From positions 1 through 64,000 of the IMG/VR virus record IMGVR_UViG_3300014205_000214: a stretch of 64,000 bases of DNA; one strand, given 5' to 3'. The DNA comes from a virus. Its lineage: Duplodnaviria > Caudoviricetes. Shown here one piece after another: positions 46,571-63,239 of this stretch (its first letter is position 1; each line of letters starts with the position of its first letter). The notes under the pieces are model-generated. The model searched no databases, had not been told where the DNA came from, and saw nothing but the letters and a program-made list of their open reading frames with translations. A program made the position numbers and the translations under genes.

Positions 46571-46598
46571 ATTATACTCAGTGGTATTCTTTTGTCAA
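46571..46598 (-). promoter_or_regulatory. sigma70-type promoter
   Basis: TTGACA-N16-TATAAT. Confidence 0.8.
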
Positions 46599-46937
46599 GT
46601 GAATTATTTGATAACCATGTTTATTACCATGCCGGGCGACTCGTTTTTGTTTAGCTTTTACCATGCCATTTCATTACAAACAATTTCACGAATCTTATTA
46701 GGACTAAGTTCTTTCAAAGCGTCACTCAATTCATCTTCGGAAAGATTATATAAATCAATATGTTTGAGTAATCCTTTTAATCCAGCTTCAGCATCTTTTT
46801 CTCTAGCAAATTGAACAGGAATAACTCCTCGTTTAGTTTCACATTCAATTAAAATTCTATAAGATGCTTTATTATCATCATTAAAACCTGAAATAGAATC
46901 TGAATCTCTATAAGATGTTCCAAATCTAATTGAGACT

Positions 46938-47345
46938 TTATTCATCAAAATCTCCTAAAGGTAGAAAAGGACTATTATCACCACCCTCAATTACTGATTC
47001 AAGATATTCCCCAATTTCTTTATGAGTCATATTTGTTTCATCATTCATTTCTGTTAGTTCAGTATAAACATTGTCCCCATCAAAATAACCTTGGGGGATA
47101 TTTCCCATATCGTCTCTTAAGCCTAATAATTCAATTAGTTTAGGAGGAGCACAGTAAATACTACCTTCATAAATAACTTGATTATCTACTTCTTTCTGTA
47201 GGTTAAAGACATAACAACCATGTCCTAAACAGCATCTTTCGCTTTGATTTTTAAAACTTTCTAACATACCTTTAATTTTTGGCGGATTAGTCTTTAGAAA
47301 AGTAATCCACTTTTTGCGATTTTCGAGAATTTCTTTACGATTCAT
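46938..47345 (-). CDS. hypothetical protein (CCLG family)
   Basis: KWITFL...KGML...RCCLG. Confidence 0.55.
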   Translation of the reverse strand: MNRKEILENRKKWITFLKTNPPKIKGMLESFKNQSERCCLGHGCYVFNLQKEVDNQVIYEGSIYCAPPKLIELLGLRDDMGNIPQGYFDGDNVYTELTEMNDETNMTHKEIGEYLESVIEGGDNSPFLPLGDFDE

Positions 47346-47585
47346 AATTAATATCCTATCATTGGTCTATTTTTACATTTTGGACACGAATAAGATTCAA
47401 AATCCTTCCATTTATATCTACATATAGAACATTTCTGTTCCTTAAACAAATCCAGGATTTTATTCCATTAGCTTTTTAAGCTCTTTGTTAACAGCTTCAA
47501 TAAATTCCTGATCAGAATTGAATTTTCCACGAACTTCTAGTAGTTTCATAGTTTTATCCTAGATAGAGTTGTTTTAACTTCTGTA

Positions 47586-47613
47586 ATTATACTCACGAAA
47601 TAAGATTTGTCAA
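47586..47613 (-). promoter_or_regulatory. sigma70-type promoter
   Basis: TTGACA-N16-TATAAT. Confidence 0.8.
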
Positions 47614-48103
47614 GCTAATCGCTTAAAACAATTCAAAATTATCAATAAAATCATGAATCTCATTCCAATCTGCTGGAATTTGTTTCCAATTATTAATACC
47701 ATCTTCAACAATAATTCCTGGAGTATCTAGTTCATATCGAGCCCGAGTAGGAATTGAAATTTTAATAAAATTCACCATTTTTTGGAGTCTATTAATTTTC
47801 TTTTTTTCTTTTAATTCTTCAATTGCTTCTTGAATAGCTGGAATAATTTGTCCAGTAAAACTAGAAACACACCAAGTAGAACTATTCATAGCTTTTTCAG
47901 TAACTTCTTTACCAAATTCTTTGATTAAGAGGTTTTTCAACGCTTGATAAGCACAACCATAAACTTGATCTAGTGATTGTCCACAACTATATCCAACCTT
48001 ATTGGAGATATAAAGAGTGTTAACAAGGTATTCGGCAATAGCTTGAACAGAAGCGGAAGAAAACATATTATATTCCTATATTGAAACTGGTTGAACTTCT
48101 AAC

Positions 48104-48131
48104 ATTATACGCTAAGAATATGTTTTGTCAA
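48104..48131 (-). promoter_or_regulatory. sigma70-type promoter
   Basis: TTGACA-N16-TATAAT. Confidence 0.8.
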
Positions 48132-48476
48132 GAGATTTTAATATCTTTATATAATTCTTCTTTTTGTTCATTAGATAGTTCTTCAAAATTCATTTTATTC
48201 ACCATTCTCCCTTATTAGCTTTATTTTGCTTTTCTCTAATTTCCCTAATCTTTTCCGCAACAACTTCTTGGCCCTTTTTCCACATTAAACCATCACGACA
48301 AAGTTCTTTAAACATCCAATAAGGAGTTTGCTCTTTTCCATTCTTAGAGAAAAAACCAATTTCATAGTTTCCAGATTCAGCAATATAAACACAAATATCT
48401 TCAATTACATATTCTTCAATAGTATTGTGAACAGTTAGTAAACAAAGAGTATCACCAATAGAAATTACTTTATTCA

Positions 48477-48932
48477 TTATAGAACTTTCTTAATAAATTC
48501 TTCTAATACTTCTCGACCAGATTTTCCACATTGACCATTTAATTGATTTTGACGTAGAGTCATTCCAAGATTCATTACTTCTAGAAGCAATTCCTTAACT
48601 TCATCCTTAGAATAAACCTTTTCAGGAATATTATCCAGGATATTATCTTGTCCAGAAGAAACCATTTGAAGGTTTTTAATTCTTTCTTTCCATTCTTGAT
48701 TGATTTGTTCTGTGAAGGGATATTTTTCACAGCTTGTAAAACAGTAGCTAATTCTTTGGTCATAATCAATATTTAAATTAGTTACAGCTTCAGAATATGA
48801 ACCATATACTTGACCAAGAACACAACAGGTATCACTATTTATACTAAATTTTTCCAGATTAATCTTGTTATACCAACCAGGATTAACCTTATTAAGGAAT
48901 TCGACACCATTAGAGATTTCTTTTTCAAACAT
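48477..48932 (-). CDS. hypothetical protein, CxLGQ paralog family
   Basis: NGVEFLNKVNPGWYNKINL...CCVLGQVYG. Confidence 0.7.
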   Translation of the reverse strand: MFEKEISNGVEFLNKVNPGWYNKINLEKFSINSDTCCVLGQVYGSYSEAVTNLNIDYDQRISYCFTSCEKYPFTEQINQEWKERIKNLQMVSSGQDNILDNIPEKVYSKDEVKELLLEVMNLGMTLRQNQLNGQCGKSGREVLEEFIKKVL

Positions 48933-49019
48933 AATAAGCTATTTTCATCTTTCTTTCCCTTTTTGTTTTCTTTAAAGGGTTTTAAGGGTCTTGAAGGAAC
49001 TTTGAACAGGAAATATTAC

Positions 49020-49048
49020 ATTATACGCCAACAACAATCAAATGTCAA
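49020..49048 (-). promoter_or_regulatory. sigma70-type promoter
   Basis: TTGACA-N17-TATAAT. Confidence 0.75.
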
Positions 49049-49126
49049 ATAATTTTCTGAATTTTCTTTTAACTATCGAGAATCACGTAAAACACTCCTT
49101 AAAACAGACCTAACTATCCTTAATTG

Positions 49127-49154
49127 AGTATAATTCGGTTTTCAATAATGTCAA
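49127..49154 (-). promoter_or_regulatory. sigma70-type promoter
   Basis: TTGACA-N16-TATACT. Confidence 0.65.
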
Positions 49155-49345
49155 TTACCTATTTTCTAATATAAATCCTGATAAATAAAGGTAATAAGAT
49201 AAAAATAGTTAGGATAGTTAAAACATCAATAAACAGATAAAGCAGGTAACTCTGCGGCGAACGCTTTTTGTTTAGCATTAACAATCCATTTTTAAGAGTA
49301 TTCAAAAGCAATCAGCTTTCAATTTCGTTTTTAAGGCCCTAGACT

Positions 49346-49415
49346 TCAATCCTAACGAGACTTTTTAATAGATAGGTGGTTTGAGTCGATCTAAAAGAAA
49401 ACTCGTTAGAATTGA
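49346..49415 (-). other. long irregular intergenic hairpin
   Basis: CTAACGAG/CTCGTTAG core extended to 14 bp with a G-U pair on the minus strand, plus inner stems. Confidence 0.55.
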
Positions 49416-49433
49416 TTTACTGAGATTTTAAGA

Positions 49434-49808
49434 CTAGTCAATTCTTCCAGCACAGATTGGGCCTATTCCACTAGAAATTGATTCAGGAGTGCTTAACGCT
49501 CTGTCACATACTCTACATTTTGTACTAAATTGGGAAACTAATCCTAACTCCTCAATCTTCAAAAGACAGTTAGCAGTTTTTTCGTACAAAGTTCCCTTGT
49601 GGCGATTCCAAATATTAATTCCGGATTCATCAACAAAACCAATTCCAAGATAATCTTCTTGGTTATTTGGCCCGATCAACATTGAAAGAATTCTTTTTCC
49701 AGCAAGCTTACCGGATTTGACTGTTTTGATTTGAAAAGTTCTATGATTTCCTGTTGCTGGATTACTAATTGTCAAAATACCATTGTGAGTCAAAATAGAA
49801 GTAGTCAT
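49434..49808 (-). CDS. DUF6011-like zinc-ribbon phage protein
   Basis: C-terminal CRVCDRALSTPESISSGIGPIC. Confidence 0.7.
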   Translation of the reverse strand: MTTSILTHNGILTISNPATGNHRTFQIKTVKSGKLAGKRILSMLIGPNNQEDYLGIGFVDESGINIWNRHKGTLYEKTANCLLKIEELGLVSQFSTKCRVCDRALSTPESISSGIGPICAGRID

Positions 49809-49830
49809 TAAAAACCCTTGATTTTATTGG

Positions 49831-50388
49831 TTAATATTGATAGGCAAACTGTATATATTCGCAGTTCGCGGCCTTATCAAAATCTATACAAACAATTTTT
49901 CCGTCTTTAATTCCAATGTTTCCGATATGATTATCAGTAAAACTATAGTCACATTTACTTTCAAGATCACTTACTAAGTCAGCAACATCTTCACAAATAG
50001 ATCTATACAAAAATTCAATAAGATTATTATCATAAGAATTTAGATTCTCAATAACATAAACAATTTCGGTAAAATATCCATAGTATTTCTTCCCGAGATA
50101 TTCAACTCCATCAATTTTTCCAAAAACTTCAGGGCCTAATCCAAATTTTGCTGCTTTTTCTTGGTTTTTATAGTTAGAGTCTCTTTGTTTTTCATTAGAA
50201 GAAAGCTTAATACCGATCTTATCATTCAATTTGAAGAATAGATTAAATGATCCATTCTTGCGGGGTGAACTTGAAATAATGTTTTGAACAGCTTCAACAT
50301 CAAATTTCATCAAATTATCCCGATATAAGTTAGTATAAAAAACAATCAATTTTTGTTGTAATAATAAGTCTTTATCAAGATTTGACAA
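49831..50388 (-). CDS. minimal protein-kinase-like fold protein
   Basis: IGIKL, GLGPEVFG, DNHIGNIGIKDGKIVCIDFD; paralog of 23706..24119. Confidence 0.6.
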   Translation of the reverse strand: MSNLDKDLLLQQKLIVFYTNLYRDNLMKFDVEAVQNIISSSPRKNGSFNLFFKLNDKIGIKLSSNEKQRDSNYKNQEKAAKFGLGPEVFGKIDGVEYLGKKYYGYFTEIVYVIENLNSYDNNLIEFLYRSICEDVADLVSDLESKCDYSFTDNHIGNIGIKDGKIVCIDFDKAANCEYIQFAYQY

Positions 50389-50803
50389 AATTGTATCAGA
50401 TTATTACCTACGACTTTTCAACCGTATGCTTATCTTGTGGTGCTTAATTTGTATTGATTGTTTTTAAGCGTGACAAAGTTCTTCAAGAATACCATTGAAA
50501 TAGATAGCTAACAAACCTTCTTTATCAAATTTCTTTTCAATTTTGTTAAGCATTGCTTTAGAAATTCCTTTATTACTATGACAAGTAATCAATCCTAAAT
50601 CTTCAGAATAATATCCGCGAACAGGATTTTGATAAGCATCATCACCCCAAATATCTGAATGATAATGTTCGTGGTTATAAGATTCTGCTATTTTAATTTT
50701 TCCGGCAATTTCAATCCAAATATGAGACATTTTTACAATGTTTTGATTGGTTTTCTCTAACATTTTAAATTATCCTGATTTAGAGGCTTGATTGAACTCT
50801 TTC

Positions 50804-50831
50804 ATTATACTGTAAAAGAGAAGTTTGTCAA
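50804..50831 (-). promoter_or_regulatory. sigma70-type promoter
   Basis: TTGACA-N16-TATAAT. Confidence 0.8.
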
Positions 50832-51475
50832 GCGTTTTAAAGAGTGATTTTTTAGAGGAAATACTTAGAATATTCAATAAATAGTAAAGCAAATCAAGTA
50901 AAGATTAAAAAGCTATTAGACAAAAACACCAAAGCAATAAAGCAAAACATAAAAAGGTTTAAAGATAAGGAAAATATTGGGAATATATGAGTGAGACAAA
51001 CAAAATACATATCTTTTCTCATCAAAATTCGTTCAAAACATCCAAAGATATCTCATATTACTTAACTAGATAACCTCAAAAACACCCTTTCAAACATAAA
51101 AATGAGAAAGACATGCAATAGACAACCTAACAGAAAACTTAAAATAATTTTACAATATTTCTTCGTGTGCAACACTCTAAGTCTTTATTTTTCAAGCACT
51201 TACAGCAATTTTCCAAAAACTCTTAAATCGCCTTACGGCTCCAATTCCCCCTTTAAGCATTTTTCCAAGCTACTTCTATTGAACTTAGCAAACCCTTATT
51301 TTAAAAGGACTTTTTTAATTTTTTCTAAAAGTGGTATCCTGTAGACGGGGGGTAGACCAAAACTACAAAAACACTCTAGTGGGGAAATTTACAACATTAA
51401 CAAAAGTATTATTTGTCACGCTACAAACATACTTTTCAACACATATTTTATCTAGAGATTCTTTAGAAATTAAAC

Positions 51476-51504
51476 TTGACAAAAGCTACAACGTCTGGTA
51501 AAAT
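51476..51504 (+). promoter_or_regulatory. antisense sigma70-type promoter with extended -10, no downstream ORF
   Basis: TTGACA-N17-TAAAAT with TGG before -10; paralog of 52875..52903. Confidence 0.6.
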
Positions 51505-51562
51505 CACCTTTTGATTTAGCTTTTACAACAAAATTTATAGTTAGAGATAGATAGCGATAAAT

Positions 51563-51590
51563 AGCCCGAACAAATTTCTTTGAACGGGCT
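51563..51590 (-). terminator. hairpin, probable terminator after ORF 51610..51966
   Basis: AGCCCG-TT-CAAA-GAAA-TTTG-TT-CGGGCT on minus strand. Confidence 0.55.
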
Positions 51591-52002
51591 TCAAAATTAC
51601 TTCCGTAGATTAGCTTAGACAGTGGCTTCCAAGTTCACCCTTCAAAACATCTTCGTGCATTCCGTGCATAATTTCAATCATATCATCCTCAGTAATATAT
51701 GATCGAGTAGAAGCATAAGAAAGACGTTCAGCCCTTATTAAGCTAATCCCAAAACCATATTCAATCTTCTCTACTGTTTTACGAGCACAGATATCCTTCA
51801 GGTTAAATCCTGAGAAATCCTTTGAAGATATCTGAAAATGCCACAATAATCGAGCCATTTGAACTGTATCAACCAAACCGTCTTCCCAGGCGTTAAACAG
51901 AAGATTCTTATGATTATCGTCATTAACTAGACTAACAGCAGTTTTCACAAAATCAAAAACACTCATGAAAATTCTCCAGGAAAGTGGTTGGGAACTTCTT
52001 AC

Positions 52003-52030
52003 ATTATACGCCGGGAATATCTTTTGTCAA
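52003..52030 (-). promoter_or_regulatory. sigma70-type promoter
   Basis: TTGACA-N16-TATAAT. Confidence 0.8.
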
Positions 52031-52561
52031 GCTCTTTTTCTACTTCGTTCATTTTGTGATCCCTTAAGAAAGTTTACAAACCTTCTTCTTTTGTGCTCTT
52101 TTGGACAATTTCAGAATCTGTTCAGCACTAATACGATCTTCATTAGTGAAAGTTATTTCCTCCCAATTAGCTGCCATTGACCTATATCGAGCAATTCGCT
52201 CTTTCTTTTCTTCACACAGTTTCCGCCAAAGATCTTTTCTAGCCTGTTCTTTAGCAGCTAATTTCTGAGCTTGAAAGTTATTTGGAGTAACTGGAGTAGT
52301 ACAAATATCAGGAACACGAACCCAATACTTTACAGTTTTTTTAGCACCTTTCCAAACAACTACTTCTTCACGTTCTTTTTTACCTACCAAATCGGGGTCA
52401 AAGTCATAATGATAAACAATCTTGATTCTTGGAGTTTTTCGTGGACGAAACTTCTTTTTTCCATTTTCATCAACTCCAGCATAGAAAGATAAACTGTAAG
52501 TCTCAATTACAACTTGCTTTGCCATTCTTATTTCCTTAAAAGTGTCTCAGAACCTACTCCC

Positions 52562-52589
52562 AGTATACACTAGGAATAGGGAATGTCAA
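52562..52589 (-). promoter_or_regulatory. sigma70-type promoter
   Basis: TTGACA-N16-TATACT. Confidence 0.7.
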
Positions 52590-52768
52590 ATCAATTCTCT
52601 GTGGAATTAAGAAGTTATTTTACCAGTTGGCAAGATACCACGACGAATAGCTTTAATAAGATACTCCTTACTTTCGTGATGAGTAAAGATTTTGTTTTTC
52701 TTACCAACTTTAACAATCAGAAAGTACATTTTGTTTCTTTCAAAGAGATTAACTTCTGAACTGCCTCT

Positions 52769-52796
52769 ATTGTACACCACGTTTAAGGAAAGTCAA
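52769..52796 (-). promoter_or_regulatory. sigma70-type promoter
   Basis: TTGACT-N16-TACAAT. Confidence 0.6.
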
Positions 52797-52874
52797 ATAC
52801 ATTATTTGTGGAATATAGAAGTTCATTTAGAAGCTTGAATAGGTGCTTATTTAGACTTTCTTTAGAGATTTAAC

Positions 52875-52903
52875 TTGACAAAGCTGGAAACGTGTGGTAT
52901 AAT
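52875..52903 (+). promoter_or_regulatory. antisense sigma70-type promoter with extended -10, no downstream ORF
   Basis: TTGACA-N17-TATAAT with TGG before -10. Confidence 0.7.
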
Positions 52904-53030
52904 CTGAATTTTTTGTTTAGATAGTACAAATATTCCCTTAAACATATCCTAAAACACTTCCTTAAACTTATCCCAAAAAATTGCTCAATACCCCGAAAAA
53001 AGCTAAAAATAAAAAATCGAAACTTCTGGG

Positions 53031-53513
53031 TTAGGAGAGACAGCTTATAACATCTTCACAAAGCTTTTTAAATTCGATTATTGTTAAGTCTCTTTTAGCC
53101 ATATTAGCATCTTTACAAACAATTTGACAGTTTTCAATAGAATTAGAACCATTTTTAGTTCTTGGAATAATATGATCTAATTGATAGCTTGAAGAATCTG
53201 TTAAATCAATTTTGCGATTAGTTAAAGCACATTTCGGGAAATCTCCTATTTTTAATAAAAGATCATCAACAGTAAAATTCATTTTAGAACCGTTTTTATC
53301 TTTTGAGAAATCTCTTATCTTATAACATAGAATCATCCTAATATTGCTTTTATATTTTTGATAGTAATCCCGAGAAATATCTTTAGTGTTTTCTCTAGTA
53401 TGATATTTAATAGTATTAAAACTAACTTGATATTCTCTTGATAAGCTCGCTAGGCTTTGTTTTTTAGATTTTTCTTTAATTTCTTTTATTTGTTCTTGAT
53501 TTAACTTTTTCAT
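53031..53513 (-). CDS. HTH-HNH endonuclease
   Basis: N-terminal MKKLNQEQIKEIK...SLASLSREYQVSFNTI HTH; CALT...YQLDHIIPR..GSNSIENCQIVCKDANMAK. Confidence 0.75.
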   Translation of the reverse strand: MKKLNQEQIKEIKEKSKKQSLASLSREYQVSFNTIKYHTRENTKDISRDYYQKYKSNIRMILCYKIRDFSKDKNGSKMNFTVDDLLLKIGDFPKCALTNRKIDLTDSSSYQLDHIIPRTKNGSNSIENCQIVCKDANMAKRDLTIIEFKKLCEDVISCLS

Positions 53514-53545
53514 AATCTCTCCAGTTTAATAGATTCTATACATAT

Positions 53546-53555
53546 ATAAATACTC
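53546..53555 (-). promoter_or_regulatory. GAGTATTTAT motif, upstream of HTH-HNH gene
   Basis: Reverse-oriented copy 33 nt before ATG 53513. Confidence 0.7.
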
Positions 53556-53665
53556 CAAAACGCTATTGATTACTAAATCATTATCAAAATCTAAAAATTG
53601 CACTTATATTGCACACTAACAGGGCTAAAACTGCCCTTTTGGGTGCGGTGTGACACCACACCTGG

Positions 53666-53740
53666 ATGGGTGGTTAGGTCAACTCTAGAGAGGTACTCAC
53701 AATGGGTGGTAGGGTCAACCCAAAGGAGTGGGTGAACGGG
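53666..53740 (+). repeat. G-rich direct repeats / G-run cluster
   Basis: ATGGGTGGTTAGGTCAAC (53666-83) and ATGGGTGGTAGGGTCAAC (53702-19), 16/18 identical, 36-nt period; GGG runs at 53704, 53712, 53730, 53738. Confidence 0.6.
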
Positions 53741-54143
53741 CGTACACTGGTTTTTTGTACACCTGTCAATTCGACCGCAGAGCAACTCGCGTGCCAATAT
53801 CAAATTGACTTCATTACAAAACATTAACTAAAGTCTACTGCGAAGGATGACGATAAGATACTCAGCGGTCAGCTCGACAGCTAAAACTAAGTGTCCCTGC
53901 CAAAATGGCAAAACGAAAATTCTTAAAAGTAATTGACGCCCTTAAAGGGCTCTAAGGGGAAAACATGCGACATAGACTACTGCCTGGCCCATTGTGGGGG
54001 TTGACTGGTTCGGATAATGTAAGTGTTAGAACGCGACGATTGATCGCAGCGGTTGGCTTGTTGCTGACCGCAGGCTGTGCGGGCGGACGGGTGAGCCTCA
54101 CAACAACCATTCAGAATCACCCGATAACAATTGGAGTAGAATT

Positions 54144-54422
54144 ATGGGAGTTAGAACCGTTGCCGCAAGGGACGAAGCTTTGCGACGTATCGTCGCCCAC
54201 GTCAAAGAGGGATTGACACGCCGCAAGGTGGTAGAAGTTAAACTCGCTCCGCAAGGTTCAATTACCGTTGCGGATGTTAGGCGGTGTTTGAACGCGGACG
54301 GTGTTATCGTCAAGCGTATCGCAGACTCGGAACGATACGTAGCCGCTAGCATGGCAGCTCAAGACGGCTTCGGAATCAACTTGGAGACCACATGGGAAGC
54401 AGACCTGTTAGCGGCTAAATAG
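54144..54422 (+). CDS. hypothetical protein in G+C-rich island
   Basis: GGAG SD upstream of ATG; natural-looking composition. Confidence 0.6.
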   Translation: MGVRTVAARDEALRRIVAHVKEGLTRRKVVEVKLAPQGSITVADVRRCLNADGVIVKRIADSERYVAASMAAQDGFGINLETTWEADLLAAK

Positions 54423-54506
54423 CTTGCTGGCAGTGCTGGTAATCGCGTTTTTTGTGGGCGTGTTGCTCACGAAACATTGAAGTAACTTTTTGAAAGAACT
54501 CTGATT

Positions 54507-55001
54507 ATGTCGAAGATAGCAATGGTTCCAGTAGCGTATGCTCAGAAACTCGGCTTGACCGTCACCACCGGCGAGAAGGGCAACGCAGTGCCTCACAACA
54601 CTGGGCGACCTGTAAAGAAGGTTGACAAGCTTTGGGTAGCCAAGCTTTTGAAGGCCAACCCGCACTTTGCCGACCTGCCTGTTAGTAAGAACGGAGAAAA
54701 CAAGGTGGGCGGGCGAGCCAAAACCGTCGCTCGTTTCGTGGTGGACGCATTCAAGCTTAGCGACGCGCAGGGATACTTGACAATTGGTGACTTGGCTGAG
54801 GTTGCCGGACTCAGTAGCGTCAATTATGGGGCTGGGGCCAAGGAGTTGTCAGCGATTATCGCCAAAATGTGCCTTGCCGATTGCCTGACCGTCACAGGAA
54901 AGGGTCGCACCGCCTCAGAAATGAGCGACGAAACGACCTTTAACCTTGACGATATCGAACTCGAAAACGCCGATGATATCGACCTTGACGACCTGTGCTA
55001 G
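54507..55001 (+). CDS. putative DNA-binding protein (HTH-like motif, acidic tail) in G+C-rich island
   Basis: YLTIGDLAEVAGLS resembles an HTH start; C-terminal DDIELENADDIDLDDLC; followed by terminator. Confidence 0.65.
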   Translation: MSKIAMVPVAYAQKLGLTVTTGEKGNAVPHNTGRPVKKVDKLWVAKLLKANPHFADLPVSKNGENKVGGRAKTVARFVVDAFKLSDAQGYLTIGDLAEVAGLSSVNYGAGAKELSAIIAKMCLADCLTVTGKGRTASEMSDETTFNLDDIELENADDIDLDDLC

Positions 55002-55031
55002 TGCTCGCTTGCAGTAACCGATAACGACCTA

Positions 55032-55066
55032 TTGGGCCAGCCTAAAAACTGGCCCAAAATTTTTTT
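55032..55066 (+). terminator. Rho-independent terminator
   Basis: TTGGGCCAG-CCTAAAAA-CTGGCCCAA (9 bp) followed by T7. Confidence 0.85.
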
Positions 55067-55116
55067 GAAAAAATGAGTACATTTTTTCCTACCGTGTAGA
55101 CATACTCGACAGGGGA

Positions 55117-55200
55117 TTGAAAAGGAATAAGCATAGCTTATCTGTTTATTTTTGCCCTTCGGGCGTTGAAAGGAATAGGCTAAAGCCTATCAGTTTTTTG
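55117..55200 (+). repeat. two covarying hairpin repeats (49-nt period)
   Basis: TTGAAAAGGA-ATAAGC-ATA-GCTTAT-CTGTTT and TTGAAAGGA-ATAGGC-TAAA-GCCTAT-CAGTTT. Confidence 0.65.
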
Positions 55201-55479
55201 TTTGTGATCCAGGCGGGTATTCTATTAGAGAAACTACACTAGTCCCGGCACTCCCTTTTCCTATACCTCATATACTTACAACTCCCACCAAAAATCCAAA
55301 TAGTCTCTCCCAAACCTTAAAGGTAATAAAAGCTAATAAACTTACTAGTCACTTATCAATTAACCTATTTAAGTTATCTTACAAGTTATACATCTAATAT
55401 ATTAAAAGAATAAACTATCCGAAAAAATTTAAAACTATGTTCATTAAGATCTAGGTACTCCTAGATATAATAGGTATAG

Positions 55480-55489
55480 GAGTATTTAT
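55480..55489 (+). promoter_or_regulatory. GAGTATTTAT motif at start of late module
   Basis: 38 nt before ATG 55527. Confidence 0.7.
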
Positions 55490-55526
55490 TAAATAGTCGC
55501 ATTTATTTTATTATACGGAGTAGATT

Positions 55527-55769
55527 ATGAAAAGAGAATTAAACAAACACAATAAATTTTACGTCGATAAGGCTGTAGCTAGCGTAAAAGAAACTGAAGA
55601 ACTAAAAAAGTCAGTTGAAGAAGACCTTCAAGAACAACCCAAAGAAGAAGTGGAGAAAGCTCAAGCAAAACTTCTAAAATTTCTAGAAACAGATGTTAAG
55701 CAACCAGACAAGAAAGAAGTTGTCCACAAGGACTTAAAAGATGTTGCCAAAGGTAGAGATGAAAAGTAA
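55527..55769 (+). CDS. hypothetical charged protein
   Basis: First ORF after late motif; GGAG SD. Confidence 0.6.
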   Translation: MKRELNKHNKFYVDKAVASVKETEELKKSVEEDLQEQPKEEVEKAQAKLLKFLETDVKQPDKKEVVHKDLKDVAKGRDEK

Positions 55770-56259
55770 ACCGTCTGAAGAACAACTTGAAACTATCTAT
55801 AAAATAGCTAAACAAATTTCTTCTGACAAATGGGTTCCCGGTTACACCAAGGAAGACATTCAACAAGAAGCTATCATTATTGCTCTTAAAGGCTTCTATA
55901 GATATAATGGCTCGATTCCCTTTGATAAATTCATTGGGAATCATATGAGAAATCGTTTAATTACTTTACGCCGGGATAAGTATGTTAAACCTGGATGTTC
56001 TTGCGGGAAATGTAAAAAATGTCTTCACAATACTTCCCGAATAAATATCATGAGTCCCTCTGATATATCTTCTGAAAATCCTAAACTAGAATATAATGTT
56101 GAGGATTCTGTTGCTTCTAAAGAATTAATGGAATATTTAGATGATTTTATTCCAGCAGAACTTAGAGACGAATATCTTAAACTTACTCAAGGGTGTTATG
56201 TTTCTAAGGAAAAAAAAGCAAAACTGAAAGTAATTATAACAGAAGCTCTTTATGGTTAA
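55741..56259 (+). CDS. phage-encoded sigma70-family factor-like protein (region 2, with CxCxxCxxC insert)
   Basis: EDIQQEAIIIALKGFYRYNGSIPFDKFIGNHMRNRLITLRR resembles sigma region 2.2-2.4. Confidence 0.6.
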   Translation: MLPKVEMKSKPSEEQLETIYKIAKQISSDKWVPGYTKEDIQQEAIIIALKGFYRYNGSIPFDKFIGNHMRNRLITLRRDKYVKPGCSCGKCKKCLHNTSRINIMSPSDISSENPKLEYNVEDSVASKELMEYLDDFIPAELRDEYLKLTQGCYVSKEKKAKLKVIITEALYG

Positions 56260-57139
56260 AAAAGCTATTAGTCACAATGGTCAGAAATCTGGACCATATT
56301 CTTCCGAAGAAAAGAACTATATTAGTGATCAAGCGGGGAAAATATCTCCAGAAATGATTGCTCAAAAACTTCTAAGAAATCCTAAAAAAATAAGAGATTA
56401 TATGACCAAGCAAGGTCTTATGAAATATTATTATAAGGAAGATCTAGAAAAAGATCAATTACAGAATATTAGAAAGAGTAAGTATTGGAATATCTTATGT
56501 GAACAATTTTCTAAAGAAGAACTAGATTCTTTTGAATATCACTGGCAAAATATAGTTAAGCAATTCCGCGATGATATTTTACATACAGAAGAACTTCAAA
56601 TAGTAGATGCTATTAAACTTCAATTAATGATGGATAGAAATCAGAAAAAGCAAAAACAAGCAATGGACCATATTGATTTTCTTCGAGCTGAAATTACTAA
56701 AGAAAGAAAAAGTCCTTCTCCGGATGATAAAAGAATACAAAGCTTTAGTCAAGATCTTGCTGCTTGTTACTCTGGAATAGAAGCTTTAGATAAAGATCAT
56801 ATTATGCTTCTTAAAGAAAAAAACAATACTCTTCAAAAGCTAAAAGCTTTAAGAGAACAAAGAGTAAGCCAAATAGAAAACTCTAAAGAAACATTAATTG
56901 GTTGGGTTAAACAACTTTATATGAATCCCAAACTAAGATACGAATTAGGATTAAAAATGGAAAAGATGAGAATAGCAACACAAGTAGAATATAATAGACT
57001 TTCTGCTCCTCATACTTTTGCTGATGGTGTTGTTGATAGACCTATTTTAAATCATGAAACAATATGTATGACTTTGACCCCGAACAATACAAAAGAAGAT
57101 ATCGAAGAGAAAGAACTGATTCCGGATTTGAACCAATAA
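56252..57139 (+). CDS. hypothetical coiled-coil protein, possible terminase small subunit
   Basis: Position upstream of terminase; N-terminal HTH-like segment; positional inference only. Confidence 0.4.
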   Translation: MVKKAISHNGQKSGPYSSEEKNYISDQAGKISPEMIAQKLLRNPKKIRDYMTKQGLMKYYYKEDLEKDQLQNIRKSKYWNILCEQFSKEELDSFEYHWQNIVKQFRDDILHTEELQIVDAIKLQLMMDRNQKKQKQAMDHIDFLRAEITKERKSPSPDDKRIQSFSQDLAACYSGIEALDKDHIMLLKEKNNTLQKLKALREQRVSQIENSKETLIGWVKQLYMNPKLRYELGLKMEKMRIATQVEYNRLSAPHTFADGVVDRPILNHETICMTLTPNNTKEDIEEKELIPDLNQ

Positions 57140-57348
57140 GGAAACAATGTCTTTCTCGGGATAAATATAAATGTAAAATGTGTGGCTCTAAAAAACCTCT
57201 ACAAGTTCATCATATTATTAGGTACGCTAATAGTATTGCTCTAAGAAATGAACTATCAAACCTAATTTCTCTCTGTAGAGAATGCCACACTAAAGTAACT
57301 GGTAACGAAAAGCATTATATAGAATATCTTCATGGATTGATTAAATGA
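57064..57348 (+). CDS. HNH endonuclease (packaging-module type)
   Basis: RDKYKCKMCG, LQVHHI, NLISLCRECH. Confidence 0.85.
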   Translation: MYDFDPEQYKRRYRRERTDSGFEPIRKQCLSRDKYKCKMCGSKKPLQVHHIIRYANSIALRNELSNLISLCRECHTKVTGNEKHYIEYLHGLIK

Positions 57349-57785
57349 AGGTTTTTATTGATTCCCGAGAACAATATCCATTAAGTTTCTCTTTTTATGG
57401 ATTTGAAGAAGAAGTCATAAAATTAGAAACTGGAGATTACTTCTTTGAAGATTATCCTGATCTAGTTATTGAAAGAAAAAGAACTACTGGGGAAATCTCA
57501 ATGAATCTAAGTCAAAAATGGAAACAGTTTGAAGCAGAACTAATAAGAATGTCTAAATATAAATATCCTTATCTAGTATGTGAATTTCCTCTTGAATATA
57601 TTGATATCTTTCCTGTTAAATCCGGAATACCAACAAATAGGTTTTCTAAAATAAGAATGCCTGGATGGGTTATTAAAAAGAAACTATTAGAAAATTGTGC
57701 TAAATATAATATTAAACTAGTTTTCTGTAATAATCCAGAAGAAGCTCAACAAAAAATTATTGGGATATTACAAGAATGCAATTAG
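57345..57785 (+). CDS. ERCC4-domain nuclease
   Basis: VFIDSREQ, LETGDY, VIERK, FEAELIRM. Confidence 0.8.
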   Translation: MKVFIDSREQYPLSFSFYGFEEEVIKLETGDYFFEDYPDLVIERKRTTGEISMNLSQKWKQFEAELIRMSKYKYPYLVCEFPLEYIDIFPVKSGIPTNRFSKIRMPGWVIKKKLLENCAKYNIKLVFCNNPEEAQQKIIGILQECN

Positions 57786-60700
57786 ACCTAAAGAATTCTT
57801 CTCCGGAATATATTGATAAGGTTAGAAATGATTATAAAAGATATTCTGGATTAATCTTTAATGATGATACAGTTTATAATCCCTTATTAGAAATTCCAAA
57901 AGAAGTAGAAGAACAGCCACACTTATATTATACTTGGCTTTTATCTAGACCAGAATATCTTAATTTCTTTTGTTCAGAATTTCTTAATGTTGAACCATTA
58001 TTCTATCAAGCATGTATTTTAGAAGAACTTTGGAATAGAAAATTTCCAATGTTAATTGGTAGTAGAGGTCTTGGTAAAACCTGGATGTTAGCTGTTTATA
58101 TTATGTTAAGAGCTACTATTCTTCAGGGTAGAAAGATTGTTGTTGCTGGGGCATCTTTTAGACAGTCTAAATTAGTATATGAATATTGTACTCAGATCTG
58201 GAATAATGCTCCTTTATTAAGAAATGCTGTTTCATCATATCCTGGTGATCAAGGTCCAAAGGGTGGTAATGACGCAGTTCACTTTAGAATAGGTGATTCT
58301 ACTGTTATTTTTATCCCTATTGGCTCTGGAGGAACTATTAGAGGTCTTAGAGCAAATGATATAATTGTCGATGAGTTTTCTTGTTTGGGAGAGACAACTC
58401 TAATAGAAACACAAAATGGTCTAGAAAGAATTTCTGATTGTATTGATAGCCCAAATTTAAAACTTTATAATAGATATGGTAATTTAGAAATTCCGGAAAA
58501 AAGAATTAAAACACCTCTAATAGATGTTTATAAAATAGAAGTCAGGAACGGTTATAGTTTTAAATGTTCTTCTATTCATAAAGTATTAACGTCTAATGGT
58601 TGGAAATTAGCCAAAGATTTAACAAATAAAGACTATCTAGTTTTTGAAAACAATTATAAATTCCCAATAAAAGAAATTCAAGGTTTGGATGAAGATATAG
58701 CTGAGTTAATGGGACTTTTAATTTCTGAAGGGTCTATTAATAATAGAAACTATATTTCTATAACAGGAACGTCTAAAGATTTAATGAGCTATTTAGATAA
58801 AAAATATAAATATTTAAATCCTAAAATATATACGAGAAAAGCAAAAATAGATTACAGAGGATGGAATTGTAAAGAGTCTTATAACTTTAATATTCATAAT
58901 ACTAAATTTAGAACAGATTTATTAAATTTAGGACTGGATTATTCAATAGTTTATAATAAAAAAATACCTTGGTCTATTTTACAATCCCCAAGAAATATAA
59001 TTATTAAGTTTTTAAACGGTTTATTTAATGGCGATGGTTCCTGTTTTATTTTTAATGCAAGAAATAAAAAAAGACTAGGAGTTGCTTATTATAGCGTTTC
59101 AGAACAGTTAATAGATGAACTTCAAGTTTTATTATTTAAGCTTGGATATTTATCCAATAAACAGGTTAGAAAAAGTAAAATTAGTAATAAGCCACAATGG
59201 ATGATCAGACTAAACGGAGAATATGCTTACGATCTAGCAAAAGAATTAAATATACCAAGATTTAATGACATTTTAGATAACGAAGAATACGATGTTCACA
59301 AAAGAACTAATTATGTAAATTTTAGAAATGGATATTATTGCGTAGATTTGTGTTATCTTAGTAAAAGCTATAATCTTGGAACTAAATTTAAAAATAAAGA
59401 AGATGCTTTAAAAGCCGTTGATAATTTTTTCGAAAACAATAAACAATGTCTTTTAGTTAAATCTGTTAAAAAACTTAAAGAAAAAGAGCATCTTTATGAT
59501 TTCGTATTACCAGAAACCCATTCTTTTATTGGTAATGGATTTGTTCAGCATAATTCACATAGTAAAGAAATCTTTGAAAATGTTATTGCTGGTTTCGCTG
59601 CTGTTCAAGGTTCTCCACAGGATAAAGTATCAGATAGACTAGAAGAAGACTTTAATAAAATGTTTGGGTTTGATATTTTAGAAAGAAAAGATGATCTAAA
59701 TATATCTAATCAAATTATTATTTCTGGAACAGCATATTACTACTTTAATCATTTTGCTGAATATTGGGAAAAATGGCATAAAATAATTGTTTCTAGAGGC
59801 GATCCTAACAAACTAGAAGAAATTTTTCCAGATGGTATAGAACCAGGTTTTAGCTGGAAAGATTATTCTGTTATTAGAATACCATATGATATTTTGCCTA
59901 GTCAGTATATGGATGAAGGTAACATTGCTAGATCTAAAGCAACATTAAATTCAACCTTATTCCTTATGGAAATGGGAGCAATTTTTTCTAAAGACTCTGA
60001 TGGTTTCTTTAAAGCTTCTCTAGTTGAGTCTTGCGTGGCTTCAGAAAACAATTTAATAGAAAAGTCTTCCGGAGTTGTTAATTTCTTTCCCAGACTAAGC
60101 GGGGATAATGATAAAAAATACTATATGGGTGTTGATACGGCTTCTCAAGTAGATAATTTTGCCATTGTTATTTTAGAAGCCCATAAAGACCACAGAAGAA
60201 TTGTTTATTGCTGGACAACTAATACTAAAGAATTTAAACAAGGTAGAAAATCTGGACAAATTGCTGAAACAGACTTTTTTAGATATTGTTCCGGAAAAAT
60301 TAGAGAACTACTTGTAAGATTTCAAATAGAAAAAATATCAATCGACTCTCAGGGTGGCGGTAGAACTATTTATGAGTCTTTACATGATAAATCTTCTCTT
60401 AAACCTGGAGAGCAAATGATTTGGGAAGCTCTTGAGCCAGGGAAACTTAAAGAAACAGATTCAGAAGAGGGTTTACATATTATTGAACTGGTTAACTTTA
60501 GAAAACAAGAATATACTGTTAGCGCTAATCATGGTCTTAAAAAAGACTTTGAAGATAAGAAATGTTTGTTTCCCGAATATAATCCAGCTATTTTAGCTAG
60601 TTATTCAGGCTTAGAAGGTAAATTTGCAGAGTACATGGAAGATAATATTATCAATATAGAAGAACTTAAAAGAGAATTAACTCTTATAGTTGTTACTTCT

Positions 60701-60949
60701 ACTGCAAATGGTAATGAAAGATTTGATACTCCAGAGAACAAAATAACTGGTACTGAAAAAGGTGCTTATAAAAAAGATAGATATTCAGCTTTAATCATGG
60801 CTAATATGGCAGCTAGACAAGATTATCATAATGAAAATGATTATTCTTCCCGCTCAATTGAACAAATGGCTAATAGATCTCTAGAAACAAGTCAAGCTAA
60901 TTTTATTGGTCCTTCTTGGATTGTTAGTAAACTCAATGATCTATATTAA
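57776..60949 (+). CDS. terL: terminase large subunit containing an intein
   Basis: Walker A GSRGLGKT, Walker B IIVDEF, coupling motif IIISGT, RNase H-like MGVDTA...IDSQGGG...KKDRYSA. Confidence 0.9.
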   Translation: MQLDLKNSSPEYIDKVRNDYKRYSGLIFNDDTVYNPLLEIPKEVEEQPHLYYTWLLSRPEYLNFFCSEFLNVEPLFYQACILEELWNRKFPMLIGSRGLGKTWMLAVYIMLRATILQGRKIVVAGASFRQSKLVYEYCTQIWNNAPLLRNAVSSYPGDQGPKGGNDAVHFRIGDSTVIFIPIGSGGTIRGLRANDIIVDEFSCLGETTLIETQNGLERISDCIDSPNLKLYNRYGNLEIPEKRIKTPLIDVYKIEVRNGYSFKCSSIHKVLTSNGWKLAKDLTNKDYLVFENNYKFPIKEIQGLDEDIAELMGLLISEGSINNRNYISITGTSKDLMSYLDKKYKYLNPKIYTRKAKIDYRGWNCKESYNFNIHNTKFRTDLLNLGLDYSIVYNKKIPWSILQSPRNIIIKFLNGLFNGDGSCFIFNARNKKRLGVAYYSVSEQLIDELQVLLFKLGYLSNKQVRKSKISNKPQWMIRLNGEYAYDLAKELNIPRFNDILDNEEYDVHKRTNYVNFRNGYYCVDLCYLSKSYNLGTKFKNKEDALKAVDNFFENNKQCLLVKSVKKLKEKEHLYDFVLPETHSFIGNGFVQHNSHSKEIFENVIAGFAAVQGSPQDKVSDRLEEDFNKMFGFDILERKDDLNISNQIIISGTAYYYFNHFAEYWEKWHKIIVSRGDPNKLEEIFPDGIEPGFSWKDYSVIRIPYDILPSQYMDEGNIARSKATLNSTLFLMEMGAIFSKDSDGFFKASLVESCVASENNLIEKSSGVVNFFPRLSGDNDKKYYMGVDTASQVDNFAIVILEAHKDHRRIVYCWTTNTKEFKQGRKSGQIAETDFFRYCSGKIRELLVRFQIEKISIDSQGGGRTIYESLHDKSSLKPGEQMIWEALEPGKLKETDSEEGLHIIELVNFRKQEYTVSANHGLKKDFEDKKCLFPEYNPAILASYSGLEGKFAEYMEDNIINIEELKRELTLIVVTSTANGNERFDTPENKITGTEKGAYKKDRYSALIMANMAARQDYHNENDYSSRSIEQMANRSLETSQANFIGPSWIVSKLNDLY
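58382..59554 (+). mobile_element. intein (391 aa) with LAGLIDADG homing endonuclease
   Basis: Starts CLGETTLIETQNG, ends FIGNGFVQHN followed by Ser; LAGLIDADG motifs ELMGLLISEGS and FLNGLFNGDGS; removal restores DEFSSHSKEIF just after Walker B. Confidence 0.92.
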
Positions 60950-60952
60950 AAA

Positions 60953-60962
60953 GAGTATTTAT
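60953..60962 (+). promoter_or_regulatory. GAGTATTTAT motif upstream of portal
   Basis: 33 nt before ATG 60995. Confidence 0.7.
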
Positions 60963-60994
60963 TAATAGTATTACCAATCCAATTAGGGAAAACC

Positions 60995-62971
60995 ATGTCT
61001 ATTCAAGTAACTCCTAAAGATTACATTCAACTTCCAGAAGATCTTTACCAAGAAGATGACGGTAATCTTATTATGAGATCTACCGCTTCAAGAGCTAGAA
61101 CTTTTGAAGGATGGAGTGGTGACACGTCTGTAAAAAGTACGTTTACCAGATCTGATTATGAATATTTCAGAGAACCAAACTCTTTAAAATCAAGAGCTTC
61201 AATAACAACTCTTTGTCAAGAAGCTTATGAAAAAATTGGTATCATTAAGAACGTTATTGATTTAATGTCTGATTTCGGTTCTAAAGGTATAAGAATAAGA
61301 CATTCTGATCCAGAAATTGATAAGTTTTGTCAAAAATGGGGAGACAAAGTTAATATTCAAGAGAGAAGTGAAAGATTTCTTAGTTCTCTTTATAAATCTG
61401 GTTCAGTTGTTATTTATGAAACAAGAGGTAGAGCCAAGAATAGTATAACTTCAAAATATATACCGGTTGGATATACATTTCTTAATCCTGCTGCTATAGA
61501 AATTGTTGGAGAAGATAAAGGAATTCTTCCATCTGATTTTAAATATGTAGTTAAATATTCTCAAAATACCTTAAGATTATTAAGTATGGAAGATAATATT
61601 AAGTCTGTTATTCCGGAAGATCTTAAAAAATATAAGAATACTACTAATCCACTTCCTTCTGATAAAGTATCTGTTTATAATTATAAAAAAGATGACTGGG
61701 CCTTTTGGGGAAACTCAATTATTTACGCTCTTTTGGATGATCTTAAAGTATTAGAAAAATTAAAGCTTTCTGATATTGCTGCATTAGATGGTGCTATTTC
61801 TTCTGTTAGATTATGGACTGTTGGTAAACTAACAGATAATCCACAAACAACAATTCTACCAACTAGAGCTATGCTTCAAAAGGTTGCAAGGATAATTGCA
61901 AATGGTGTTGGTGGTGGCTCTATGGATCTTGTTTTTGGTCCAGAACTAGACTTTAAAGAATCTGGAACTACTATTCACCAATTTTTAGGTGAAGCTAAAT
62001 ATAAACCAACACTAGATTCTATTTATGATGGTTTGGGTATTCCATCTCCTTTAAGAAGCTCTAATAAAACTAATGCTGCTGGAAACACGGTATCTCTTAA
62101 AACATTAGTTGAAAGACTTAATTACGGAAGAATATTACTTATTGACTTTTGGAAGAAGCAACTAAGAAAAATATTTGAAACCCTCGGATTTAAAACTGAT
62201 GAAGATCCAATTATTGATTTTGACCACATGGTTCTTACAGATGAAGCAGCAGAAAAGAAATTAATATTAGATATGGCTGATAGAGATATTATTGATGTTG
62301 AAACAGTAAGAGAAAGATTTAATCTTATTCCCAAAATTGTTAAAAGAAACCTTAAAAAGGAAACTTCTGAAAGAGGTAAATCTGAACCAATTAAAGCCGG
62401 ACCATTTCATAACGCAAATGTTAAAGATGATCTTAAAAAACAACTTCTACAATCTGGCGTGGTTTTCCCAAAAGAACTTGGATTAGATATTGGGGTCACT
62501 GATGAAGAAGTCCAAAAAAGAACAAAAGCTAAAGAAAAAGCTGCAAAACAAGCTAAAAGTCTTGGAAATAAACCATTTACAGATACTCCAGGTAGACCTA
62601 AAAATATTACAGAGACTAAAAAAAGACAGAAAAAGGCTTCTGCTATAGTTTGGGCTTCTAATGCTCAAAAAGAGATATCTGATATTTTTACTCCAATAGC
62701 TTTAAAAATTTATGGAAAGAAAAACGTAAGAAGCCTATCAGAAGATGAAACTAATAATCTTGAGATATCAAAGGCTAAAATTCTTCTTTCTATAGAACCT
62801 TTTTCAGAAATTAATGAAGAAGCTATATCTAAAGCTATTGCTATTAAAGTAGATATTTCTGATTTGATATCTTTCTGGAATGATACGGAAAAAGAATTAG
62901 GTGAACTTACAGTGGCTCAAAAAAGAGAAATTAACAGTATTTTTTATTCAGAAAGTAAAATAAATGGCTAA
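60995..62971 (+). CDS. probable portal protein
   Basis: 658 aa directly after terL; helical segment AYEKIGIIKNVIDLMSDFG; mainly synteny. Confidence 0.65.
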   Translation: MSIQVTPKDYIQLPEDLYQEDDGNLIMRSTASRARTFEGWSGDTSVKSTFTRSDYEYFREPNSLKSRASITTLCQEAYEKIGIIKNVIDLMSDFGSKGIRIRHSDPEIDKFCQKWGDKVNIQERSERFLSSLYKSGSVVIYETRGRAKNSITSKYIPVGYTFLNPAAIEIVGEDKGILPSDFKYVVKYSQNTLRLLSMEDNIKSVIPEDLKKYKNTTNPLPSDKVSVYNYKKDDWAFWGNSIIYALLDDLKVLEKLKLSDIAALDGAISSVRLWTVGKLTDNPQTTILPTRAMLQKVARIIANGVGGGSMDLVFGPELDFKESGTTIHQFLGEAKYKPTLDSIYDGLGIPSPLRSSNKTNAAGNTVSLKTLVERLNYGRILLIDFWKKQLRKIFETLGFKTDEDPIIDFDHMVLTDEAAEKKLILDMADRDIIDVETVRERFNLIPKIVKRNLKKETSERGKSEPIKAGPFHNANVKDDLKKQLLQSGVVFPKELGLDIGVTDEEVQKRTKAKEKAAKQAKSLGNKPFTDTPGRPKNITETKKRQKKASAIVWASNAQKEISDIFTPIALKIYGKKNVRSLSEDETNNLEISKAKILLSIEPFSEINEEAISKAIAIKVDISDLISFWNDTEKELGELTVAQKREINSIFYSESKING

Positions 62972-63233: not shown

Positions 63234-63239
63234 AAATAA

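Follow-up and report, generated by a model that had tools for sequence, protein, structure and literature searches.

A conserved G+C-rich island in a large A+T-rich phage: a candidate immediate-early operon in host-like codon usage

The DNA analysed here, called the window, is the first 64,000 nt of IMG/VR virus record IMGVR_UViG_3300014205_000214 (Duplodnaviria; Caudoviricetes). At 53,600-55,070 it carries a G+C-rich island of about 52% G+C, compared with ~30% elsewhere in the window. When the window is divided into 1-kb bins, the bin at 54,001-55,000 has 52.5% G+C and all other bins have 24-34%; the island is the sole stretch above 40% G+C within the 64 kb. Across the 72.6-kb record, 300-nt windows average 31.5% G+C (standard deviation 5.8%), and those of the island reach 44-57%. 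A preliminary description of the sequence had placed the island at the early/late strand switch. This is borne out, with divergent early and late blocks on its two sides; the ~25% G+C given there for typical coding lines is corrected to ~30%. Both boundaries had been called sharp, which holds for the left one (200-nt windows rise in one step from 22% G+C at 53,400-53,599 to 51.5% at 53,600-53,799), while the right one falls over ~400 nt past 55,000, from 53.5% (54,800-54,999) through 40% (55,000-55,199) to 25% (55,300-55,499).

The island is predicted to be an operon consisting of a G-rich leader block, a small lipoprotein gene, a gene for a 92-amino-acid (aa) protein (p92), a hydrophobic micro open reading frame (ORF) and a gene for a 164-aa protein (p164) (Table 1). 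The 92-aa and 164-aa ORFs and the terminator, all named in the preliminary description, are present; the lipoprotein ORF and the 18-codon ORF had been missed. Below, W denotes the window and L-numbers denote loci of metagenomic relatives from different ENA, JGI and Logan samples.

Table 1. Positions of the island's features and of its upstream control region in the window (pI, isoelectric point; GC3, G+C content at third codon positions).
Feature	Position	Strand	Remarks
Sigma-70 consensus promoter, extended -10	52875..52903	+	TTGACA, 17-nt spacer ending TGTGG, TATAAT; directed towards the island
A+T-rich leader, predicted transcribed	52904..53030	+	Aligns with leaders of L002, L004 and L006
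HNH homing-type endonuclease gene	53031..53513	-	Inserted in the leader in antisense; outside the operon
Motif TTGCACTTATATTGCAC	53598..53614	+	Two TTGCAC hexamers 11 nt apart (TTGCAC-N5-TTGCAC), exactly at the G+C rise
G-rich non-coding block	53618..53735	+	~120 nt; conserved
Small lipoprotein gene (predicted)	53965..54216	+	3' end overlaps the start of the 92-aa gene
92-aa basic orphan protein (p92)	54144..54422	+	pI 9.4; GC3 0.54
18-codon hydrophobic micro-ORF	54424..54480	+	TTG start 1 nt past the p92 stop; ...LAVLVIAFFVGVLLTKH
164-aa orphan protein (p164)	54507..55001	+	Basic body, disordered linker, acidic C-terminal tail
Intrinsic terminator (predicted)	55032..55067	+	9-bp stem (55,032-55,057) with 6 G-C pairs, then T7; closes the operon
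Post-terminator spacer	55066..55200	+	Conserved; second terminator at 55,175-55,190

The predicted lipoprotein has an RTRR n-region, a hydrophobic core (LIAAVGLLL) and a lipobox (LTAG↓C) with Cys38. Its mature core is conserved (GRVxLTTxIxxHPITIGVELWE), as are the Shine-Dalgarno sequence and ATG of its start. Homologues of this lipobox ORF occur in eight lineages, in L009 as a clean 46-aa ORF. Judged by eye, a lipobox of the PROSITE PS51257 type is found in W, L002, L004, L005, L006, L009 and L011, and an imperfect one (CCG↓C) in L014. Pfam and PHROG searches of the W and L009 lipoproteins gave no match, with little power for so short a peptide. A spanin pair formed by the lipoprotein and a partner was considered and rejected: the gene that follows the lipoprotein gene lacks a transmembrane segment, and the gene order does not fit. 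Homologues of p92, 18-70% identical, stand at the same place in seven lineages and are missing in L014 and L015; identity is 70% to L002 and 25% to L004, and there are at least three very different types. The AlphaFold2 model of p92 (predicted local distance difference test, pLDDT, 64) has the order helix-strand-helix-strand-strand. The micro-ORF encodes a putative single-pass membrane peptide, and a hydrophobic frame of 18-23 codons at or beside the upstream stop codon recurs, with differing sequences, in W, L002, L004, L005, L006, L009 and L011.

The body of p164 (residues 1-130) has a pI of 9.6 and its last 34 residues (131-164) carry a charge of -10, in agreement with the acidic tail first noted. 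The ratio of nonsynonymous to synonymous divergence (dN/dS) of p164 against its nearest relatives is ~0.07-0.1, which indicates strong purifying selection and a real gene. A helix-turn-helix (HTH)-like motif had also been claimed, and for this there are only weak, non-significant winged-helix-like hints. Foldseek comparison of the AlphaFold2 model (pLDDT 84; predicted template modelling score 0.81) with PDB and BFVD returned no credible neighbour (E >0.2), and ribosomal L11 rows were dismissed at template modelling scores of 0.14-0.18. A wide VIA-align comparison gave a best Z of 3.0, with weak winged-helix rows for RecX, UFL1 and APC2 (Z 2.2-2.9), and the ESM atlas gave only weak MarR/HTH leads (0.79-0.81). 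No Pfam, PHROG or PDB-profile match to p164 was found. From its charge pattern and model, we read p164 as a candidate nucleic-acid-binding or partner-binding protein with a regulatory tail. A fourth gene (89-112 aa) lies between p164 and the spacer in L002, L004, L005, L006 and L014, and W is without it. The island proteins are all orphans: Pfam and PHROG searches of every one of them, and of their homologues in the relatives, gave nothing above noise.

A scan of the 64 kb for TTGACA-N14-TGnTATAAT found a single zero-mismatch match, the promoter that faces the island; 10 matches have two mismatches or fewer, compared with 1.8 expected by chance. L002, L003, L004, L006 and L009 have the identical perfect promoter ahead of the island. 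A further near-consensus promoter on the plus strand (51476-51504; TTGACA ... TGGTAAAAT, one mismatch) is found 1.4 kb before the perfect one, in a stretch with ORFs annotated on the minus strand. The terminator scan predicted no plus-strand terminator between the perfect promoter and 54,424. The promoter and the first ~190 nt of the leader are A+T-rich (29% G+C), and the non-conserved part of the leader is intermediate (37-46%). The HNH gene within the leader matches Pfam HNH_4 at 5e-8 and several PHROG HNH families. It is missing at this site in L002, L004 and L006, and the same site is occupied in L009 (4117-4599); W and L009, which have this gene in common, share only 30-39% identity in their island proteins.

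The motif TTGCACTTATATTGCAC occurs once in the window and is kept in L002 and L004, and is a possible operator or promoter element. The G-rich block that follows can be aligned across six lineages whose island proteins are only 35-88% identical, and contains a direct repeat whose two units, of the ATGGG(G/T)GGT type, are spaced by 36 nt (53,666-53,692 and 53,702-53,728). In W, L002 and L004 it folds somewhat better than shuffled sequences (minimum free energy, MFE, z ~ -2.1), and RNAalifold on six sequences found weak covariation (term +0.7). Rfam 15 gave no match at E ≤ 1 in 52,500-56,000 of the window and, barring tRNAs elsewhere, none at E ≤ 0.5 in six relatives. We treat the block as a putative regulatory element, which may be a cis-acting RNA or else an operator on which proteins of the island itself act. 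Directly after it, L006 (1640-2100) and L009 (4800-4900) carry tandem repeats. The units are ~15 nt long (TTCACTAGTAAACTA type) or GC-rich and 26 nt long, the latter interrupting the L006 assembly with a run of N. The coding windows of the island have a folding z of ~0 and thus no structure beyond composition, and windows over the terminator (54,900-55,149) reach z -2.5 to -2.8. In absolute terms, predicted RNA stability is ~ -40 to -50 kcal/mol per 150 nt in the island, compared with -15 to -25 in the flanks.

No fewer than nine distinct relatives from metagenomes have the island at the same place. It measures ~1.5-1.9 kb at the same syntenic slot in L002/L003, L004, L005, L006, L009/L010, L011 and L014/L015. 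In relatives with visible flanks the island has 47-55% G+C and the flanks 28-33%; in the most distant pair, L014/L015, where p164 is 27% identical, the values are 52-57% and 36-40%. The short contigs L007, L008 and L013 are G+C-rich throughout. The shared order is leftward early genes, control region, island, sigma-like gene, a gene of ~295 aa, an ERCC4 nuclease gene (in the relatives) and the large terminase gene. The preliminary description had named, as what would undo the observation, a chimeric assembly or an island that is absent from all relatives and matches a contaminant; the island is present in all relatives, and both junctions recur in independent ENA, JGI and Logan assemblies.

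Six close metagenomic homologues of p164 were found (60-88% identity), and a profile search reached only 14 clusters among 1.84 billion protein representatives. All homologues whose flanks are visible occupy one and the same slot in A+T-rich relatives, in a set of contexts that leaves out six distant representatives (P0014-P0016 and P0018-P0020). Scans of IMG/VR, JGI metagenome contigs and 185,579 species genomes confirmed no p164 locus, nor did a scan of the species genomes confirm a locus of the tail-fibre genes described below; these scans were pattern-limited and are weak negatives. The suggestion that the island is a captured host fragment is not supported by this distribution, with the same phage locus in all visible contexts and none in the pattern scans of the species genomes. 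Searches of 50,697 phage records with the DNA of the island and late region, and by tblastn with the portal protein and p164, also gave no match, and no cultured relative of the phage was thus found. The 72,627-bp record is the initial part of a 179,427-bp ENA contig (ERZ27247358 k141_634020), and the phage is not one of 72.6 kb; the island lies ~54 kb into this contig of at least 179 kb. The phage is large (at least 179 kb), A+T-rich and uncultured, and belongs to a previously undescribed lineage.

The composition of the island has been maintained over deep divergence. Within the window, GC3 is 0.54-0.64 in island genes and 0.19-0.23 in the backbone; G+C at first and second codon positions (GC1 and GC2) is likewise raised, and the proteins are rich in Ala, Gly and Val. 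Across all lineages GC3 is 0.44-0.64 in the island and 0.17-0.24 in adjacent backbone genes. Synonymous differences between lineages are saturated in the island (synonymous divergence, pS, 0.64-0.82), and nucleotide identity of p164 drops to 0.39-0.48. By our calculation, the backbone bias (equilibrium GC3 ~0.2), acting neutrally over ~0.75 substitutions per synonymous site per lineage, would have erased ~90% of the G+C excess. The excess is kept, and we conclude that the composition is maintained. Parsimony-polarised changes in p164 comprise 52 from G or C to A or T and 30 in the reverse direction, with a balanced 13 and 14 on the W branch; the ratio expected under neutral backbone bias, again by our calculation, is ~5:1, and the observed counts are far from it. 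Composition does not decay to that of the recipient with divergence, as amelioration would have it, and GC3 still stands at 0.44-0.64 at saturation. The high G+C is not a relic of transfer and has been held over divergence that saturates synonymous sites.

Dinucleotide usage also sets the island apart. The symmetrised CpG rho is 0.58 in the backbone (window flanks 45000-52800 and 55500-64000, and relatives), a strong depletion, and 1.06 in the island, where depletion is absent. The dinucleotide distance delta* between island and flanks is 162, compared with 28+-8 for resampled flanks. Two other references lie nearer to the island: a pair of tail-fibre genes of this phage (delta* 86) and the 55%-G+C IMG/VR phage contig L017 (delta* 87). 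CpG depletion is likewise missing from the fibre genes and from L017, which together with the island have a rho of 0.98-1.07. The fibre pair lies outside the window at 69,725-73,363 of the record (L001 7725-10627; L016 10001-13638) and encodes proteins of 825 aa, with Laminin_G_3, and 386 aa; its GC3 is 0.41-0.43, compared with 0.08-0.28 in the adjoining late genes, and besides the island these are the only GC3-anomalous genes seen. L017 carries adjacent homologues of the fibre (47% identity) and of a neighbouring 183-aa protein (60%), whose gene beside the fibres of this phage is fully A+T-rich (GC3 0.13). These homologues in a 55%-G+C phage contig hint that the host may be G+C-richer.

Codon choice in the island goes beyond base composition. 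In counts pooled over island and backbone genes of ten lineages, which are related and not fully independent, AGA makes up 8/176 Arg codons in the island and 106/132 in the backbone, and ATA 8/129 and 95/267 of Ile codons. Compared with expectations computed from the island's own position-specific base frequencies, AGA plus AGG account for 18/176 Arg codons (10%, with 41% expected; p=9e-20), CGG for 7% of CGN (24% expected; p=3e-8) and ATA for 6% of Ile (32% expected; p=2e-12). The avoidance of AGA, AGG, CGG and ATA thus exceeds what base composition predicts. Relative synonymous codon usage (RSCU) of AGA is 0.27 in the island, compared with 0.38 in the 55%-G+C phage. The Arg codons that the island does use, CGA, CGC and CGT, are read by the inosine-bearing major tRNA-Arg.

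Codon usage also follows a gradient along this genome, read over 30000-64000 of the window. AGA represents 3/21 Arg codons in the island (14%), 84/184 in the leftward early/middle block (46%) and 99/110 in the late block (90%); early and late blocks differ at p=2e-15 with nearly equal GC3. ATA follows the same order, with 62/395 Ile codons in the leftward block (16%) and 65/203 in the late block (32%). The leftward block encodes a tRNA-Arg(TCT) with anticodon UCU (38,091-38,165), and L002 and L004 encode a tRNA-Lys(TTT) with anticodon UUU. This is the pattern expected if the earliest genes are read by the host tRNA pool alone and the later ones by a pool supplemented by the phage. It lends real, though indirect, support to an idea put forward in the preliminary description, that these genes are adapted to a G+C-richer host.

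We propose, with a probability of roughly 45%, that the island is an immediate-early operon kept in host-like codons, and that all other parts of the genome rely on A+T-rich codons and phage tRNAs. Host sigma-70 RNA polymerase would start at the region's strongest consensus promoter, and the transcript would pass through the A+T-rich leader, here with its antisense HNH insertion, and then through the conserved G-rich block. The genes for the lipoprotein, the basic p92, the 18-aa membrane peptide and p164 would follow, and transcription would stop at the terminator behind p164. Before phage factors come into play, the island genes would depend on naive host machinery for their translation and perhaps for their transcription. 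The host's preferred codons would be G+C-richer than those of the phage, and the avoided AGA, AGG, CGG and ATA would be minor-tRNA codons. Later genes would use A+T-rich codons, with the rise of AGA from 46% to 90% of Arg codons, and phage tRNAs (Arg-UCU here, Lys-UUU in relatives) would help to decode them. The lipoprotein and the membrane peptide would probably act on the envelope, for example in the exclusion of superinfecting phage, and p92 and p164 would probably act on nucleic acid or host proteins.

Low-G+C cyanomyophages are known to carry their own tRNAs for infecting high-G+C hosts (PMC3152331), codon usage can differ between early and late phage genes (PMC5683454), and GC3 "genome landscapes" of phages are non-random (PMC2266997). 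No description of conserved G+C-rich early islands in phages was found in the open-access literature.

Several observations weigh against an immediate-early operon in host codon usage. Both the host-like character and the early timing are deduced, the latter from promoter consensus and position. The relatedness of the lineages behind the pooled codon counts is one further caution. Codon selection alone leaves unexplained the raised GC1 and GC2, the intermediate G+C of the non-conserved leader and the loss of CpG depletion. The leftward early genes, which are served by the same control region, remain A+T-rich. Some net drift from G or C to A or T is seen on three of four recent branches. The island and backbone trees also disagree, with the W backbone nearest to L004/L005 and the W island nearest to L002, and exchange of island modules among relatives does occur.

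A wider form of the proposal is possible, and we regard it as doubtful. Here the genome would be composed in two selected "dialects", a bootstrap operon in host composition and host-tRNA codons for immediate expression, and an A+T-rich remainder whose decoding is progressively supplied by phage tRNAs. The operon might in addition escape silencing or RNA attack directed at A+T-rich sequence.

Among the alternatives, the one that survives best is a mobile cassette of moron type, imported again and again from a G+C-rich pool (other phages of the host, or the host itself) and bearing the composition of its usual residence. We consider this unlikely. The island resembles such a cassette in having, by prediction, its own promoter and terminators, together with a foreign composition, which by delta* is far from the backbone and closer to the fibre pair and to L017. 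The conflict between island and backbone phylogenies (L002 against L004/L005, and p92 at 70% against 25%) would also be expected of it, and fibre genes do cross between G+C classes. Against repeated import, all p164 contexts with visible flanks are the same slot in A+T-rich relatives, all syntenic relatives carry the island with only single genes varying, and no G+C-rich donor-type genome with a p164 homologue was found outside the phage slot among the 1.84 billion representatives, IMG/VR and the species genomes. Repeated import into a single fixed slot in every lineage is unparsimonious, and the island avoids AGA more strongly than the G+C-rich phage does.

Selection on the nucleic acid itself is an improbable explanation when taken alone. 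A G+C-rich first operon would evade A+T-seeking silencers (of the H-NS, MvaT, Lsr2 or Rok type), or host or abortive-infection RNases that prefer A/U, until counter-measures are made, and p164, with its basic body and acidic tail, could be a counter-silencer. Phage proteins that antagonise H-NS are known (PMC8501957, PMC7827196). This explanation accounts for a G+C content that is raised at every codon position and also in some of the non-coding leader, for the absence of CpG depletion and for the greater absolute stability of the island RNA, and the phage's RNA-repair genes (RNA ligase, RlaP, kinase) suggest RNA-targeting host defences. It fits poorly with the A+T-rich promoter and first part of the leader, where silencers would nucleate, with coding windows at z ~0 and with the lack of homology of p164 or p92 to known anti-silencers, and it does not predict the tRNA-specific codon pattern. 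Selection on nucleic acid and selection on translation could act together. The RNA-repair set (13881-16511 and 21029-21928 of the window) comprises an RNA ligase that has a PHA02142 OB domain, along with an RlaP nucleotidyltransferase and an AAA_33 kinase-like protein; other genes of this leftward block encode a NAPRTase/NAMPT-like protein (18,063-19,079), a RuvB-like ATPase (10,153-11,052) and an ArdC-N-like protein (45,808-46,533).

Local hyper-recombination with G+C-biased repair, set off by the exchange of modules, by homing endonucleases close by or by a location at genome termini or a terminal repeat, is more improbable again. It is suggested by the phylogenetic incongruence, by a pS that is higher in the island (0.64-0.79) than in the flanks (0.49-0.55), by homing endonuclease genes that flank the island in several relatives and by the many short contigs that break within it. 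Other endonuclease cassettes of the same genome have no G+C halo, however, and biased repair does not predict the avoidance of CGG and AGG alongside a preference for CGA. The island edges match the transcription unit, and no repeat was found at the ends of the 72.6-kb part of the 179-kb contig.

A reading of the island as mainly one large structured RNA, or as a DNA element such as an origin or pac site, in which the ORFs are incidental, is very improbable. The conserved non-coding block with its direct repeats and MFE z ~ -2.1 in three lineages, and the tandem repeats in the L006 and L009 leaders, are of the kind such an element would have. The block makes up only ~120 of ~1,470 nt, however; p164 evolves at dN/dS ~0.1, the frames of the lipoprotein and micro-ORF are conserved, covariation is weak and Rfam gave no match. 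A large structured RNA is rejected for the coding part, where z is ~0, and for the entire island this reading is largely refuted. A chimeric assembly or a contaminant, to which only the composition jump itself would point, is refuted by the same junctions on both sides in the independent ENA, JGI and Logan assemblies.

Several known systems resemble the proposed immediate-early operon. Morons were reportedly described by Hendrix and colleagues in lambdoid phages as independent transcription units of deviant composition between phage genes. The island is similar in its own strong predicted promoter and terminators, its G+C unlike the flanks and its small accessory genes, including a predicted lipoprotein. 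Among close relatives, some typically carry a given moron and others lack it, and the deviant composition is taken as a sign of recent acquisition; the island differs in being fixed at one slot in every relative, in a composition that outlasts synonymous saturation and in the lack of a detectable donor pool. First-expressed modules include the T7 gene 0.3 region behind promoters A1-A3, the pre-early (first-step-transfer) genes of T5 and the host-takeover module of SPO1. These share with the island strong host-type promoters, small orphan proteins made first (by prediction here) and a position at a boundary of the genome map, and differ in that no sequence or fold similarity to their proteins was found. 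To our knowledge, no conserved compositional island is described for these modules. Early-expressed exclusion lipoproteins are known as Llp of T5, Cor of phi80 and N15, and Ltp of Streptococcus phage TP-J34. The likeness is a small phage-encoded lipoprotein in an early unit, here a predicted one; the mature part is only ~25-45 residues here, and no homology was found (Pfam and PHROGs negative).

Temporal codon programmes and low-G+C phages with tRNAs (PMC5683454; PMC3152331; PMC2266997) offer a further parallel, as codon usage differs by temporal class, an A+T-rich phage carries tRNAs for A-rich codons (AGA, AAA) and host-preferred codons are selected in a subset of genes. The published shifts are modest and genome- or class-wide, and host-preferred codons are reported for structural genes (PMC5683454; PMC3152331; PMC2266997). 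In contrast, the step seen here amounts to 20 points of G+C and is confined to one 1.5-kb early operon, a single genome combines both strategies, and it is the structural genes that are least host-like. We regard the feature as a variant of early operons, morons and temporal codon programmes that is built wholly of orphan genes; what is unusual is how large and sharp the contrast is, that it stays within a single small early operon and that it has persisted across deep divergence.

If the island is an immediate-early operon in host-like codon usage, base composition within a genome would be a selected, gene-specific trait tied to expression timing, and not only a fossil of transfer. A compositional island would then be a sequence-only marker of the first-expressed genes of an uncultured phage, where anti-defence and takeover functions concentrate, and a clue to the G+C content and tRNA pool of its host. 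With 1.5 kb and four or five tiny genes, it would also be a clean natural test case for the relation of codon usage, phage tRNAs and the infection clock. The two-dialect form, if true, would point to a rule that is general among A+T-rich phages with G+C-richer hosts and so far undescribed. The locus also adds four or five new orphan families that may serve in exclusion or takeover: the mini-lipoprotein, the 18-23-aa membrane peptide, p92, p164 and the fourth protein of the relatives.

Further along the late block, the large terminase gene (57776-60949; 1,057 aa) contains a mid-gene intein with an endonuclease of LAGLIDADG or HNH type, and the terminase of relative L014 is intein-free with 662 aa. 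The late module runs on beyond 72.6 kb (L016, record 59,726-82,203), with more tail genes and a 2,359-aa tape-measure protein.

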